NCBI RefSeq assembly: GCF_030013595.1
Contig: NZ_CP122768.1
Source of the DNA: Escherichia coli
GTDB lineage: Bacteria > Pseudomonadota > Gammaproteobacteria > Enterobacterales > Enterobacteriaceae
Reading direction: 5' to 3' (one strand)
DNA: 64,000 nucleotides
In this document: in pieces, positions 2,302-23,430 of the stretch
How positions within the stretch are numbered: the stretch's first letter is position 1
Layout: each line of letters begins with the position of its first letter
Position numbers and translations under genes: made by a program
The notes under the pieces: model-generated
Database searches by the model: none
The model's input: only the letters and a program-made list of their open reading frames with translations
Told to the model about the DNA's origin: nothing

Positions 2302-3720
2302 TCACACTTCCTCTATAAATTCAGGTTCAGTTTGCGGGTAGAAATAACGGTACTGATAATGAATCTGCGCGCGGGCTTCTTCCGGGCTGTTAAATTCCCC
2401 TACGCCATACCAACCGAACAGCGCAGCTCCTGCGACGGTCGTTTCTGCGTCGTCGAGAACTTTTACCGGAATATCAAGCATATTGGCTTTAATCTGATTC
2501 CACAATGTGTTGCGACTTCCTCCACCGACTAACAATAATTCAGAGGCTTTAAAGTGCCCGATTTTTTCCAGCATCTGTAGATTGTGCTGTAATTGCGCAG
2601 TTAACCCTTCCAGCGCCGCGCGATAGAAATGCCCCCGCGTGGTATTAAGCGTCACTCCTTGCCAGCCAGCGTTCTGACACGACAATAAATCACACTGCAT
2701 TTTCACGCCATCCGCGCCAGGCGCGATCAGACGAGCCTCTTCAATCAACATTTGCCAGGGAGTTTCAGCCGTCCAGAACAGTTTTCTCACCCATTCCAGC
2801 ACGCCGGATGCCAGCCATTGCATACCTGGGTTATACAACCCTGCCTGACTATCCAGTTCGCAGGTCGAACCGGCGTACTGACTTAACAGCGAAGTATCAA
2901 CCTGGGTGCTACGGACCATTAAAATTTCCCATGTACCGGAAGAGAGCACGGGTTCATTTTGGTCGGCACCAGCGCCAAAAAGGGCGAACTGGGTATCGTG
3001 ACCTGCGGAAATCACCGGTATGCCAACGGGTAAGCCGAGCATTCCTGCGGCGCTGTTCTGTAGCGTACCAATCTGTTCACCCGCTTCCACCAGACGAGGG
3101 AAGAGTCGGCGTGGAATACCGGTGGCTTGTAAAATTTGCGGACTGAAATCGCGTTGCTGGATATCCAGCATCTGGCTGGTTCCGGCCATCGTGATATCAG
3201 TAGTGAATTCGCCGGTTAAACGGTGGTTAATCAGCGACGAAATAAAGAGCCAGGCGTGCGCGCGTTCCAGCAGTTGTGGATGATTTTCTTTCAACCACAC
3301 CAACTTATATAACGTATTGAAACTAAAGGCTCCGACGCCAGAAATAGCCTGCAACTGCTGTGCGGAGATCAACCGTTCAATATTGTCCATTACCGCTGCT
3401 GTTCGCGGACATTTCCAGCTAATGATCGGATAGAGCAGATTGCCTTGCTTATCTACCAGAGCGCCATCCACACCAAAGGTGGTGACGGCGATACCGCGGA
3501 TGTGGCATTCAGTCAGTTCACTATTGATTTGCCGACAGCAATCAGCAAAGCGTTGCAAAATGGCGTCTAAAGACCACTGGTGCCAGGTGGTGTTTTCCAT
3601 CGCGATATCGCTGGCATTAGGCGTTGAGGCGCGGGCAACAATTTTTCCCTGCCGATTAACCGCGATGGCCCTGACATTGGTCGCGCCACAGTCGAGTACC
3701 AGGATAACTTCTTGTTTCAT
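2302..3720 (-). CDS. fucK: L-fuculokinase (FGGY family)
   Basis: ORF 2302..3750; likely true start at [15 protein letters not shown] giving 472 aa. Confidence 0.9.
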
Positions 3721-15955: not shown

Positions 15956-16501
15956 GTGGACGATTTGACCGCACAAGCCCTGAAAGATTTTACTGCACGC
16001 TACTGCGATGCGTGGCATGAAGAGCATAAAAGCTGGCCGTTGAGTGAGGAACTGTACGGCGTTCCTTCACCGTGCATTATTTCAACCACCGAAGACGCCG
16101 TATACTGGCAACCCCAGCCGTTTACCGGGGAACAAAATGTAAACGCGGTTGAACGCGCTTTTGATATTGTGATACAACCCACAATTCATACCTTTTATAC
16201 GACTCAGTTTGCCGGGGATATGCACGCGCAGTTTGGCGATATTAAACTGACATTGCTGCAAACCTGGAGTGAAGACGACTTCCGTCGGGTGCAGGAAAAT
16301 CTGATTGGTCATCTGGTGACTCAGAAAAGGCTAAAACTGCCGCCCACGCTATTTATCGCGACGCTGGAAGAAGAGTTAGAGGTCATCTCGGTGTGTAATC
16401 TCTCCGGTGAAGTGTGCAAAGAGACGCTGGGAACACGTAAACGGGCGCATTTAGCCTCAAATCTTGCGGAATTCCTTAATCAACTTAAGCCTCTTCTGTA
16501 A
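15956..16501 (+). CDS. syd: SecY-interacting protein Syd
   Basis: 181-aa ORF recognised as Syd. Confidence 0.9.
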
Positions 16502-16520
16502 TCCAAATACCCCATCTGGT

Positions 16521-16538
16521 TGTGAGAGATCTCTTACA
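16521..16538. promoter_or_regulatory. 18-bp palindrome TGTGAGAGATCTCTTACA, candidate UvrY (BarA/UvrY response regulator) binding site for csrB
   Basis: Perfect inverted repeat about 180 bp upstream of the csrB 5' end; matches my recollection of the conserved UvrY/SirA box. Confidence 0.55.
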
Positions 16539-16711
16539 GACTCTGTAGGAGATCGCCAGGAAATAAGCGAATACTTAAAAAGATAAGAATCGTTATTTTC
16601 ATTTAAAATCAATATATTGCTTGTTAATCCTTAACTTTCATATGAAATTTTCCTTAAGGCATTGTCTGTAAGCGCCTTGTAAGACTTCGCGAAAAAGACG
16701 ATTCTATCTTC

Positions 16712-17077
16712 GTCGACAGGGAGTCAGACAACGAAGTGAACATCAGGATGATGACACTTCTGAAGGACACACCAGGATGGTGTTTCAGGGAAAGGCTTCT
16801 GGATGAAGCGAAGAGGATGACGCAGGACGCGTTAAAGGACACCTCCAGGATGGAGAATGAGAACCGGTCAGGATGATTCGGTGGGTCAGGAAGGCCAGGG
16901 ACACTTCAGGATGAAGTATCACATCGGGGTGGTGTGAGCAGGAAGCAATAGTTCAGGATGAACGATTGGCCGCAAGGCCAGAGGAAAAGTTGTCAAGGAT
17001 GAGCAGGGAGCAACAAAAGTAGCTGGAATGCTGCGAAACGAACCGGGAGCACTGTGAATACAGTGCTCCCTTTTTTT
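16712..17077 (+). ncRNA. csrB: CsrB small RNA (CsrA-sequestering sRNA)
   Basis: Begins GTCGACAGGGAGTCAGACAACGAAG; more than a dozen CAGGATG/AGGA motifs spaced through ~360 nt; ends in a GC hairpin (17045-17070) plus T7 run; located between syd and yqcC. Confidence 0.85.
17045..17077 (+). terminator. Rho-independent terminator of csrB
   Basis: gggagcactg-tgaata-cagtgctccc stem-loop followed by ttttttt. Confidence 0.8.
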
Positions 17078-17122
17078 ATTCCTGCTATCCTTCGCGGCAG
17101 TTTTTCTTATTGAGGTTGCTTT

Positions 17123-17452
17123 ATGACCACTCATGACCGCGTTCGTCTCCAGCTGCAGGCGCTTGAAGCATTACTGCGTGAACATCAGCACTGGCAAAAC
17201 GATGAACCCCAGCCGCATCAATTTAACAGTACCCAACCGTTCTTTATGGACACCATGGAACCACTGGAGTGGTTGCAGTGGGTGCTGATCCCGCGAATGC
17301 ACGATTTGTTAGATAACAACCAGCCGTTACCGGGCGCTTTTGCCGTTGCACCCTATTATGAAATGGCGCTGGCGACGGACCACCCGCAACGCGCGCTTAT
17401 TCTGGCTGAGCTGGAAAAACTGGATGCTCTTTTTGCGGATGATGCGAGCTAA
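17123..17452 (+). CDS. yqcC: DUF446 family protein YqcC
   Basis: 109-aa ORF recognised as YqcC. Confidence 0.85.
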   Translation: MTTHDRVRLQLQALEALLREHQHWQNDEPQPHQFNSTQPFFMDTMEPLEWLQWVLIPRMHDLLDNNQPLPGAFAVAPYYEMALATDHPQRALILAELEKLDALFADDAS

Positions 17453-18234
17453 TGCTGGAAATACTCTATCAGGATGAATGGCTGGTTGCGGTAAATAAAC
17501 CCTCCGGCTGGCTGGTTCACCGCAGCTGGCTGGATCGCGACGAGAAAGTAGTGGTCATGCAAACCGTGCGTGACCAGATAGGCCAGCATGTGTTTACTGC
17601 TCATCGTCTGGACCGACCAACTTCTGGTGTGTTGTTGATGGGATTATCCAGCGAGGCCGGACGGCTGCTGGCACAACAGTTTGAACAGCACCAAATCCAG
17701 AAACGTTACCATGCGATTGTGCGCGGCTGGTTGATGGAAGAAGCAGTTCTGGATTATCCACTGGTGGAAGAACTGGACAAAATCGCTGATAAATTTGCCC
17801 GCGAAGATAAAGGCCCACAGCCAGCAGTGACGCATTATCGCGGTCTGGCGACCGTAGAAATGCCGGTAGCGACCGGACGTTACCCGACCACGCGCTACGG
17901 CCTGGTGGAACTGGAGCCGAAAACTGGACGTAAGCACCAGCTCCGTCGCCATCTTGCCCATTTGCGCCACCCGATTATTGGCGACAGCAAACATGGTGAT
18001 TTACGCCAGAATCGCAGCGGTGCTGAACATTTTGGCCTTCAGCGGTTAATGCTGCATGCCAGTCAGTTGTCATTGACGCATCCTTTTACTGGCGAGCCGC
18101 TGACTATTCACGCGGGCCTGGACGACACCTGGATGCAGGCGTTATCACAATTTGGCTGGCGGGGTCTGCTTCCTGAAAATGAAAGGGTTGAGTTCAGTGC
18201 GCCATCGGGTCAGGATGGAGAGATAAGTTCCTAA
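17452..18234 (+). CDS. truC: tRNA pseudouridine(65) synthase
   Basis: 260-aa ORF recognised as TruC/YqcB; start overlaps yqcC stop. Confidence 0.9.
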
Positions 18235-18251
18235 TCCAGGGAGAAAACGGT

Positions 18252-18701
18252 ATGGCGGAAATTGGTATTTTTGTCGGCACTATGTACGGAAATTCGCTGT
18301 TAGTGGCGGAAGAAGCGGAAGCAATTCTGACCGCGCAGGGCCACAAAGCAACGGTATTTGAAGATCCTGAATTAAGCGACTGGCTGCCCTATCAGGATAA
18401 GTATGTTCTGGTGGTTACGTCCACGACCGGGCAGGGCGACCTTCCTGATAGCATTGTGCCGCTCTTTCAGGGAATCAAAGATAGTCTGGGCTTCCAGCCG
18501 AATCTGCGTTATGGCGTGATTGCGCTCGGCGACAGTAGTTATGTGAATTTCTGCAATGGCGGCAAACAGTTCGATGCCTTGTTGCAGGAACAGAGCGCTC
18601 AGCGGGTTGGCGAAATGCTGTTGATTGACGCCAGTGAGAACCCGGAACCGGAAACGGAATCAAATCCGTGGGTCGAACATTGGGGCACGCTGTTGTCCTG
18701 A
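18252..18701 (+). CDS. yqcA: Flavodoxin-like protein YqcA
   Basis: 149-aa ORF recognised as YqcA. Confidence 0.85.
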
Positions 18702-19135
18702 TACGTTCAGCGAGCGGTAAATGCCGTTTTAGCGGTGCTGAATCGAATCTTTTCAGGCAAATGCCAGTAAAAACTGCTTCATAGCGCGGATTTTTACTGG
18801 CGTTTGCCTGGAGTCAAGCGATCCATTTCATACTCTTCTTTATTTCTTCGTTTTAACCCTTCCTTTCTTGTTCTTGTTTTCATTTCCGTGAAGTGGATTC
18901 CACCGTCCAGGGCTAATGCCAAAATCGGGCCTCATTGAACGCATTAATGTTGTGTTGTTGCACGGTGAGCCGCTATGGCGCGCTTTTTATACTGCTATTG
19001 CCAGATATAAACACGCGCCGTATTCGGCGAACGACCTATAAAAACGGCAAAAAACACCCTACGTCACCTCTGATTTCCTGGCGATGTCGCAGTCCAGAGT
19101 GAGCGTGGCTAACGCGAATTTTCAGGAGTGCAACA

Positions 19136-20488
19136 ATGAGTTCTTTAAGTCAGGCTGCGAGCAGTGTGGAAAAACGCACAAATGCTCGTTACTGGATAGT
19201 GGTGATGTTGTTTATCGTCACATCCTTCAACTACGGCGACCGCGCTACGCTTTCTATTGCCGGTTCGGAAATGGCCAAAGATATCGGCCTTGATCCCGTG
19301 GGAATGGGCTATGTGTTCTCTGCTTTCTCATGGGCTTATGTTATCGGACAGATCCCTGGTGGTTGGTTGCTGGATCGTTTTGGTTCAAAACGCGTCTACT
19401 TCTGGTCGATCTTTATCTGGTCGATGTTTACCTTGCTGCAAGGCTTCGTCGATATTTTTAGTGGATTCGGCATTATCGTTGCCCTGTTTACGCTGCGCTT
19501 CCTGGTCGGGCTTGCTGAAGCGCCATCTTTCCCCGGCAACAGTCGCATTGTTGCGGCCTGGTTTCCGGCGCAGGAAAGGGGAACGGCGGTGTCGATTTTT
19601 AACTCCGCTCAATACTTCGCAACGGTGATCTTCGCGCCGATTATGGGCTGGCTGACGCATGAAGTGGGCTGGTCACACGTCTTCTTCTTTATGGGCGGTC
19701 TGGGCATTGTCATCAGCTTTATCTGGTTGAAAGTCATCCACGAGCCAAATCAACATCCGGGTGTAAATCAGAAAGAGCTGGAGTACATCGCCGCAGGTGG
19801 CGCGCTGATCAATATGGATCAGCAAAACACCAAAGTTAAAGTGCCGTTCAGCGTGAAGTGGGGGCAGATCAAACAGTTGCTCGGGTCACGGATGATGATC
19901 GGCGTTTATATCGGTCAGTACTGTATCAACGCCCTGACTTACTTTTTCATTACCTGGTTTCCGGTTTATCTGGTGCAGGCGCGTGGGATGTCGATTCTGA
20001 AAGCGGGCTTTGTGGCTTCCGTTCCGGCGGTTTGCGGTTTTATCGGCGGTGTGCTGGGTGGGATTATTTCCGACTGGCTGATGCGCCGCACGGGATCGCT
20101 GAACATTGCGCGTAAAACACCGATCGTAATGGGCATGTTGCTGTCGATGGTGATGGTGTTCTGCAACTACGTCAACGTTGAGTGGATGATCATCGGCTTT
20201 ATGGCGCTGGCCTTCTTCGGTAAGGGCATCGGGGCGCTGGGTTGGGCAGTAATGGCAGATACCGCGCCAAAAGAGATCAGCGGTCTTTCCGGTGGCCTGT
20301 TCAACATGTTCGGTAACATTTCTGGCATCGTCACGCCAATCGCAATTGGTTATATCGTTGGCACGACTGGCTCCTTTAATGGGGCGCTGATTTATGTTGG
20401 TGTTCATGCCTTAATCGCGGTACTGAGCTACCTGGTGCTGGTGGGCGATATCAAGCGTATCGAGCTGAAACCTGTCGCGGGGCAATAA
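19136..20488 (+). CDS. gudP: Galactarate/glucarate transporter (MFS)
   Basis: 450-aa membrane ORF recognised as GudP. Confidence 0.9.
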
Positions 20489-23228: not shown

Positions 23229-23265
23229 TGAGATTACTGACGAAGTGGCTTACGGGGACGGTTTT

Positions 23266-23366
23266 CCCCTCGCCCTTTCAAGGAGAGGACCGGGGTGAGG
23301 GTAATCATTCGCACTTGCGTTGGCCTGTTCCCCTCACCCTAACCCTCTCCCCGGAGGGGCGAGGGG
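23266..23366. repeat. GC-rich intergenic inverted-repeat element (two inverted ~36-bp units; boxC-like repeat class, family assignment uncertain)
   Basis: cccctcgccc...ggagagg...ggggtgaggg and its inverse cccctcaccc...cctctcc...gggcgagggg. Confidence 0.4.
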
Positions 23367-23430
23367 ACTGTCTGTGCTGCTCCCAGCATTGGCATTGGAC
23401 GGAACCTATTTTGACTCGACAAAACGTCCA

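Follow-up and report, generated by a model that had tools for sequence, protein, structure and literature searches.

A conserved, single-copy RNA hairpin downstream of yqcA in Escherichia coli that probably descends from an intrinsic terminator

The locus described here lies in a 64,000-nt stretch of Escherichia coli DNA (referred to as the window), in which csrB, yqcC, truC, yqcA, gudP and gudX follow each other in this order, all on the plus strand, according to the list of open reading frames and the RefSeq annotation of strain K-12/MG1655. The intergenic region between yqcA and gudP measures 434 bp. It contains, 53 nt past the yqcA stop codon and about 325 nt ahead of the gudP start, an inverted repeat that can form a long hairpin inside the yqcA 3' untranslated region (Table 1). 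In MG1655 this hairpin is found at positions 2,922,423-2,922,485 of NC_000913.3, on the minus strand, and the MG1655 record has no annotated feature over this region.

When the sequence is read directly, the two arms form 20 pairs, one of which is T.G (G.U in plus-strand RNA), with 17 nt between the arms. A repeat search finds the same structure, and at lower identity the inverted repeat can be extended to arms of 35 nt. A preliminary description of this DNA had reported a 20-bp stem with one G-U pair and a 17-nt loop in the yqcA-gudP intergenic region, and both analyses bear this out. Plus-strand RNA of positions 18735-18830 folds with an energy of -45.5 kcal/mol, compared to -21.8 +/- 3.2 kcal/mol for shuffled sequences (z = -7.4; none of 200 shuffles was as stable). 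The minus strand folds less stably (-38.3 kcal/mol, z = -5.6), because the G.U pair becomes C.A there. The full duplex consists of 23 + 4 bp with a single bulge, and thus has the length of about two helical turns or more that is typical of RNase III substrates; a stem of this kind is inside the size range of such substrates, and far beyond the stems expected of terminator hairpins. In addition, the hairpin shares with the protective stem-loops of Rho-terminated transcripts that it is stable, located in a 3' region and not followed by U-rich sequence. No U-tract was found after the full hairpin, as the next 8 nt (GAGUCAAG) hold one U. The preliminary description was correct in this respect, but a run of five U residues does open the 3' arm itself.

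Table 1. Features of the yqcA-gudP locus. Positions refer to the window, except in the last line, where they refer to the locus of a relative.
Feature	Position	Strand	Remarks
csrB	16721-17080	+	Rfam match, 382.9 bits
yqcA (flavodoxin)	18252-18701	+	Final gene of the yqcC-truC-yqcA cluster, whose genes share one orientation; TGA stop at 18699-18701
CTGAATCGA	18738-18746	+	What Escherichia retains of the block ACTGAATCG[A/T]GT[T/A]AGC, which is conserved in many genera ahead of the hairpin
Full RNA hairpin	18751-18813	+	23-bp outer stem (18751-18773/18791-18813) and 4-bp inner stem (18774-18777/18786-18789)
Unpaired parts of the full hairpin	18790 (bulged A); 18778-18785 (8-nt loop)	+	RNA fold
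5' arm, CAGGCAAATGCCAGTAAAAA	18754-18773	+	Carries the mini-palindrome GGCAAATGCC; terminal A5 run at 18769-18773
Hairpin centre, CTGCTTCATAGCGCGGA	18774-18790	+	Reported as the 17-nt loop
3' arm, TTTTTACTGGCGTTTGCCTG	18791-18810	+	Opening five bases (18791-18795) are the U-run; last bases TTTGCCTG
Pyrimidine-rich tract	18811-18890	+	Candidate Rho loading (rut) region, from composition statistics
GTCAAGCGA .. TTTCATACTC	18813-18821 .. 18826-18835	+	Widely conserved; opens the conserved gudP upstream region
gudP	19136-20488	+	ORF list, RefSeq annotation
Block ACTGAATCGTGTTAGC with gudP leader	L007 3021-3036 with 3400-3421; equivalent in L023 and L024		Complementarity

The possibility that the hairpin belongs to an unrecognised repeat family, raised in the preliminary description together with a genome-wide search for copies as the way to check it, did not hold. 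Of 5426 complete E. coli genomes, 5425 contain the intergenic region, queried as 451 bp, at a single place. A query restricted to the 87-nt hairpin matches two places per genome at low stringency, but a local BLAST search showed the second to be the self-match of the palindrome on the other strand, so that no second locus exists; in 4315 records, the identity of the best match over the 87 nt is 99% or higher. As a positive control, an inverted repeat at 23265-23367 was used in the same kind of search, and this was found at a median of 14 places per E. coli genome. It is an imperfect repeat downstream of gudD with arms of 40 nt (TCCCCTCGCCC...GGGGCGAGGGGA), belongs to a dispersed repeat family, and is the only other inverted repeat of comparable size in the window. 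Within the 64-kb window, the arm pattern with up to three mismatches occurs only at the two arm positions (0.01 occurrences expected by chance). A covariance model was built from the hairpin and run on the window and the loci of relatives (485 kb in total); it matched the window at 18750-18821 only (87.3 bits) and the relatives at one site per locus, without any second copy in the 485 kb. As the hairpin is single-copy in each genome, a repeat family or mobile element (REP/BIME, ERIC, BoxC or a new one) is ruled out. A search of Rfam 15 with positions 16000-20000 of the window and four relatives' loci gave no match to the hairpin at E-values up to 1, and identified only CsrB.

Two other observations on repeats and insertions were made in passing. 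At 40323-40362, two perfectly complementary 16-nt arms (AGAAAGGTAACTTCCC / GGGAAGTTACCTTTCT) are separated by 8 nt, and another inverted repeat lies close by, at 40109-40148. E. coli strain 2014C-4135 (L088, 3067/3068) carries ISEc23, an element of the IS66 family, a few bases behind the hairpin at about position 18818 of the window, and in another genome (H15) the match to the intergenic region ends at about 18858. Such events are rare (3 of 5425 genomes).

For comparison with relatives, 80 species-level loci were gathered via the YqcA protein, which makes the sample independent of the hairpin itself, and these were aligned over the stretch that begins at the yqcA stop codon and ends with 24 almost unchanging nucleotides ahead of gudP (18946-18969). 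The alignment reveals a recurring module, consisting of the block ACTGAATCG[A/T]GT[T/A]AGC, then GGGCAAATGCC-GTAAAA, a central stem-loop, TTTTTAC-GGC-TTTTCA, and finally GTCAAGCGAC..TTTCACACTC. In Escherichia, the second half of the first block (GTTAGC) is swapped for A(G/A)TCTT. The covariance model recognised the hairpin part of the module in 25 of the 80 loci, including eight that had played no part in its construction. These 25 loci include Escherichia, several Citrobacter, Salmonella, Superficieibacter, Silvania, Kosakonia and Phytobacter, and also two genomes labelled as Raoultella or Enterobacter. All sampled Escherichia species with a yqcA-gudP junction have the structure; absence from close relatives, which the preliminary description considered an argument against it, was not observed.

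Outside Escherichia, the sequence following yqcA is more varied. Salmonella, many Citrobacter and others have an extra canonical hairpin right after the yqcA stop codon, which is lacking in Escherichia. The whole module is absent from Enterobacter and the Citrobacter freundii group, where a REP-like GC-rich hairpin or a plain terminator is found after yqcA, as would be expected if a stable 3' hairpin of some kind is needed at this position. We take the sequence GCCGGGTAAGGCGTAGCCGCCACCCGGC, found after yqcA in these two groups in the same position as the hairpin, to be REP-like. In Phytobacter, Kosakonia and Silvania the long stem has been lost while the flanking sequence blocks were kept, which implies that something besides the hairpin is also under selection in the module. 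In five Phytobacter/Kosakonia loci (L050, L051, L064, L059 and L049, at about 3047-3120), the 5' A-run and GC core hairpin are kept, the 3' T-run is replaced by TGAAAAG, so that a terminator would be visible to the minus strand only; in the same loci the centre of a GGGC-N4-GCC mini-palindrome is flipped from AAAT to GTTT.

The alignment of these sequences indicates that the E. coli hairpin is probably the descendant of an intrinsic terminator of the A-tract/GC-stem/U-tract type, provided with an extra outer helix. An independent consensus scan called the centre of the module a canonical terminator on both strands in a Citrobacter locus (L007), and on the plus strand in a Superficieibacter locus (L063). 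Both terminators align column for column with the E. coli hairpin and occupy the same position after yqcA, and the U5 run of E. coli is homologous to the terminator U-tract of the relatives. A U-tract with at least 5 U in 8 nt directly 3' of a hairpin is present in L007 and L063, but not in E. coli. Likewise, E. coli lacks the G+C-rich stem of at least about 5 bp with a short loop that precedes the U-tract of a canonical terminator: its core (CUGC/GCGG) has 4 bp, an 8-nt loop and a folding energy of -3.9 kcal/mol, and in two other Escherichia loci (L004 and L005) the energy is 0.0. The homologous 17 nt in Citrobacter (CCTTTCATTTGAAAGGG) form a 6-bp stem-loop of -6.8 kcal/mol. In general, core energies range from 0 to -5.5 kcal/mol in Escherichia versus -6.8 kcal/mol in several Citrobacter, whereas the complete hairpin has -27 to -40 kcal/mol in Escherichia versus -11 to -28 kcal/mol elsewhere, suggesting that it is the total stability that has been kept up. 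The gain in Escherichia is due to a change of TTTTCAT to TTTGCCTG in the 3' arm, by which the stem was lengthened. Through decay of the core and lengthening of the outer stem, the U-run became buried in a 27-bp stem and the canonical pattern was lost. No terminator-like site was called by the consensus scan on the plus strand of E. coli in 18200-19200, which includes the whole yqcA-gudP gap. The judgement in the preliminary description that this is not a typical terminator therefore stands, and its repeat family does not; a modified intrinsic terminator, recognizable by the A5 and U5 runs and by the homologues L007 and L063, had been overlooked.

Conservation of pairing was assessed on an alignment of 19 sequences (A1), seven of which are from Escherichia, by counting pairs against the E. 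coli structure. Of all cells, 78.7% are paired, compared to 32-50% in controls with the 3' partners shifted by 1-3 columns. Compensatory changes are present in the outer helix, where column pair 17/49 is A-U in eight sequences, C-G in five and U-A in three, with an A.G intermediate in Superficieibacter (L071), and the inner helix covaries too. The covariation of the outer helix implies that the relevant RNA reaches beyond the U-run. Moreover, G.U exceeds A.C by 72:24 in the whole alignment and by 36:2 if only its seven Escherichia rows are counted, which points to the yqcA-sense RNA as the structured strand. The plus strand also gives the more stable fold in every Escherichia sequence; the arms of the E. 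coli variant L086, for instance, differ by no more than one C to U change, which creates a G.U pair, and its energies are -37.0 kcal/mol for the plus strand and -24.5 kcal/mol for the minus strand. Within Escherichia, divergence amounts to 3% in the 5' arm and 7% in the 3' arm, 35% in the loop, 20% in the 5' flank and 2-3% in the gudP upstream DNA.

The base of the stem differs between genera, and the lowest five pairs of the reported stem (columns 5-9 with 57-61) are formed only in Escherichia. The U-run is nearly invariant across the 19 sequences, more so than the A-run, and T43 and T44 are invariant; pure stability does not explain this strong conservation of the A and U runs. Half-site sequences kept across species, as would be typical of an operator, were not found, considering the switches at column pair 17/49 and the one-strand G.U bias. 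Taken together, the data on pairing, strand and divergence favour an RNA structure read in the yqcA sense over a palindrome bound by protein. The latter is unlikely, as the stem changes its sequence while the pairing stays, in agreement with the earlier view that this is not a palindrome for a transcription factor.

Downstream of the hairpin, several motifs upstream of gudP (18813-18835, 18882-18903, 18909-18927 and 18946-18969) are conserved more widely than the hairpin. Across genera the series reads GTCAAGCGA..TTTCA(C/T)ACTC, TTTCCGTGAAG-N4-TTCCAC, GGGCT(A/T)ATGCC and the nearly invariant AATGTTGTGTTGTTGCACGGTGAG. These motifs are presumably control sites of gudPXD; by eye, the first two resemble CRP half-site arrangements. 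None of them is present in the garP-garD control region. A candidate gudP promoter (GTGAGC-17-TATACT, 18965-18993) is located about 155 bp downstream of the hairpin, and its counterpart in Citrobacter L022 was called by a promoter scan. It is likely to be activator-dependent, and would give a leader of about 130 nt holding a small conserved hairpin before the Shine-Dalgarno sequence.

Two candidate features on the minus strand were rejected. A promoter-like sequence (TTGACT-16-AAAAAT, from 18817 to 18790) has its -35 box in the conserved GTCAAG motif and its -10 box in the A/U run of the hairpin, but one such sequence was found where 0.9 is expected from shuffled sequences, and the -10 box appears to lose its final T in most relatives. 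An ORF of 42 amino acids (18794-18922), which overlaps the 3' arm and the pyrimidine tract, is probably spurious: a single RefSeq genome lists it, as a hypothetical protein, and the region varies by indels between genera.

Rho-terminated transcripts of E. coli have been found to possess precise ends at stable stem-loops without a following U-tract; sequences with C > G and rut sites are located just downstream, and PNPase and RNase II are held off by the stem-loops (Dar and Sorek 2018, PMC6061677). The E. coli hairpin fits this description in its stability and its missing U-tract, and may do so in its downstream sequence; we therefore propose, with moderate confidence, that it defines and protects the 3' end of the yqcC-truC-yqcA mRNA and insulates gudP, with Rho terminating transcription downstream. 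RNA polymerase would run on past the hairpin, and Rho would load on the untranslated, pyrimidine-rich and G-poor RNA just beyond it and terminate transcription there. Exonucleases acting from 3' to 5' would then trim the RNA back to the base of the hairpin, which would block further digestion. As a result, the 3' end of yqcC-truC-yqcA would be marked and protected, and gudPXD would be insulated. The involvement of Rho, the protection against exonucleases and the position of the 3' end in vivo are the parts of this model that we infer. Of the ideas put forward in the preliminary description, that of an RNA processing site finds its closest supported form in such a stem-loop that defines a 3' end and would block exonucleases. 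Most likely, the hairpin represents a known type of element that had gone unannotated here, i.e. a terminator-derived 3'-UTR stem-loop, and no new repeat family.

The putative Rho loading region (18811-18890) is 80 nt long, of which 75% are C or T and nine are G (T 50%, C 26%, G 10-11%). Its pyrimidine content is in the top 0.035% of 80-nt windows, albeit that its excess of C over G is only in the top 4% or so. The tract is more T-rich than C-rich and overlaps the conserved motifs upstream of gudP, and given this overlap its composition may have another cause. In the Term-seq tables of Adams et al. (2021), no 3' end is listed between MG1655 positions 2,914,915 and 2,924,161 for the conditions covered, whereas the csrB terminator nearby is listed; the missing end may only reflect low expression of yqcA. 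TERMITe contains no match at the hairpin, and a literature search gave no paper that ties yqcA or gudP to terminators, sRNAs or RNase III.

Other explanations of the hairpin must be weighed against this proposal. It could still be a working intrinsic terminator in E. coli, either with a stop at the U-run (18791-18795) by means of the core hairpin and A:U pairing, or with the full hairpin dislodging the polymerase without a U-tract. This would be in line with the U-run being better conserved than the A-run, with the canonical homologues L007 and L063, and with the hairpin being the only strong structure between yqcA and gudP. We nevertheless consider it rather unlikely, in view of the weak 4-bp core before the U-run, which has no stable fold in L004 and L005, the lack of a call in the consensus scan, the single U in GAGUCAAG, the lack of a listed 3' end at this site in the Term-seq tables, and the covariation of the outer helix, which requires RNAs longer than the U-run. 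Cleavage of the 27-bp duplex by RNase III in read-through or 3'-UTR RNA, which would separate off the yqcA RNA or trigger its decay, is a decidedly improbable function. The near-perfect stem of 23 + 4 bp and its lengthening specifically in Escherichia would favour recognition, but the hairpin is kept in relatives with shorter stems (about 11-13 bp in Salmonella), so that RNase III cannot be its general function, and the main text of the in vivo RNase III map of E. coli (PMC6212723) does not mention yqcA or gudP.

Equally improbable is a neutral relic, i.e. a decaying terminator or sRNA 3' end, of which the long stem is upheld by quasi-palindrome template switching. The degradation in Escherichia of both the canonical core and the conserved 5' block would agree with this, as would the very fast turnover of the loop, as at a mutational hot spot, and an Escherichia lineage (L002) with two mismatches and a much weaker fold (-26.7 kcal/mol). 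On the other hand, the arms diverge by 3-7%, comparable to the neighbouring regulatory DNA (2-3%), against 20% in the adjacent 5' flank; the hairpin is retained in 5425 of 5426 E. coli genomes, with at least 99% identity over 87 nt in 4315 records; and nearly all arm substitutions preserve pairing by G.U on one strand, which template switching would not yield. A role at the DNA level, with the arms as inverted copies of a protein motif GGC-N4-GCC that serves in gudPXD control or as a nucleoid-protein site, appears very unlikely. Each arm has a mini-palindrome resembling GGCWWWWGCC, and a third copy (18911-18920) is present in a conserved block; flanking blocks are conserved even without the long stem; and the spacing between TGAATCG and TCAAGCG is 73-75 bp in most genera and 65 bp, one helical turn less, in Salmonella. 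However, the stem switches between A-U, C-G and U-A yet remains paired, and the G.U bias on one strand is an RNA signature. Moreover, the five occurrences of the motif in the window are only marginally above the 1.5 expected (3 of 100 shuffles reach five), and the other CdaR-controlled promoter region, garP-garD, shares no motif beyond chance. A shared CdaR operator found no support: GGC-N4-GCC is barely enriched, and garP-garD has four 8-mers in common with the gudP upstream region, which by a rough estimate is about the number expected by chance, and no conserved motif.

A complementarity between the conserved block on the 5' side of the hairpin and the gudP leader of the same genome exists in Citrobacter (L007, L021 and L022) and Salmonella (L023 and L024). 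As RNA, the block (ACUGAAUCGUGUUAGC) faces GCUAACGCGA...UUCAG in the leader: UCGUGUUAGC pairs with GCUAAC(A/G)CGA and CUGAA with UUCAG, the latter overlapping the Shine-Dalgarno sequence (10 + 5 bp). These duplexes have energies of -19 to -22 kcal/mol, rank first or second among about 420 intergenic windows, and are matched by none of 300 shuffled blocks. The pairing is weaker in Silvania and Superficieibacter, and it is absent from Escherichia, in which the block has changed, and from Phytobacter/Kosakonia, in which the block is kept and the leader differs. Since the pairing is absent where the block is kept, pairing with gudP cannot be the general reason for conservation of the block. In E. 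coli the block-leader pairing is not significant (-6.7 kcal/mol, rank 312 of 371); a target-like leader sequence is retained at 19107-19128 of the window and the block is lost. No independent sRNA promoter was found upstream of the module in Salmonella. The complementarity could represent the seed of an sRNA, perhaps one of the Hfq type made from the 3' UTR, a cis-acting anti-Shine-Dalgarno sequence on read-through transcripts, or a coincidence, and we regard it as an unexplained lineage-specific lead, short of a finding.

A further and unlikely reading, suggested by this complementarity, is that enterobacteria possess a regulatory RNA module in the yqcA 3' UTR that has so far escaped description, composed of the conserved single-stranded block, a small GGC-N4-GCC hairpin and a terminator, and that the Escherichia hairpin is what remains of it. 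The Citrobacter and Salmonella versions would pair over about 15 bp at the gudP Shine-Dalgarno sequence and keep the transporter untranslated, and Escherichia would have lost the block and obtained the insulation from a lengthened, very stable hairpin instead. If true, the module would silence the glucarate transporter in trans, as a 3'-UTR-derived sRNA, or in cis, as a "translational insulator" on read-through transcripts. The complementarity itself gives a concrete, testable starting point for how Citrobacter and Salmonella may control the uptake of glucarate and galactarate after transcription.

Returning to the proposed role in 3'-end formation, the hairpin adds an unannotated and well-supported structural RNA element to the map of E. 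coli K-12. The proposal would explain how the yqcC-truC-yqcA transcript can end without a recognizable terminator before the separately regulated gudPXD operon. The inferred history provides a clean evolutionary example, in which a GC core was lost, an outer helix gained and a U-tract buried, while total stability went up. It may illustrate how intrinsic terminators can turn into protective stem-loops without U-tract at Rho-dependent 3' ends, and it carries a warning that terminator predictors miss such elements.

Several known systems resemble the hairpin in part. With intrinsic terminators, in particular the bidirectional type with complementary A- and U-tracts, it shares an A-run, stem-loop and U-run in the same order and register, and a position directly downstream of a gene, and its homologues L007 (on both strands) and L063 satisfy the terminator consensus. 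Unlike in intrinsic terminators, a conserved, covarying outer helix of about 15-18 bp encloses the A and U runs; E. coli has no more than 4 bp (-3.9 kcal/mol) ahead of the U-run, and no U-rich sequence behind the complete hairpin. REP/BIME elements that stabilise the 3' ends of mRNAs are likewise stable intergenic hairpins downstream of a gene, but REP elements occur in hundreds of dispersed copies, whereas the E. coli hairpin is single-copy and unrelated in sequence. The near-perfect intramolecular duplex of more than 20 bp is shared with RNase III hairpin substrates, but the hairpin is also kept in genera whose stems are not long enough for this enzyme. A similar layout is found in the stem-loops of Dar and Sorek (2018, PMC6061677), which are also stable, located in 3' UTRs and free of a U-rich stretch, and are followed by sequence with C over G, a feature that the tract behind the E. 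coli hairpin may share; that class is defined by mapped, precise, Rho-dependent 3' ends. According to that study, stem and loop lengths in this class are distributed as in intrinsic terminators and upstream A-tracts are lacking, whereas the E. coli hairpin combines an A-tract with a stem of 27 bp.
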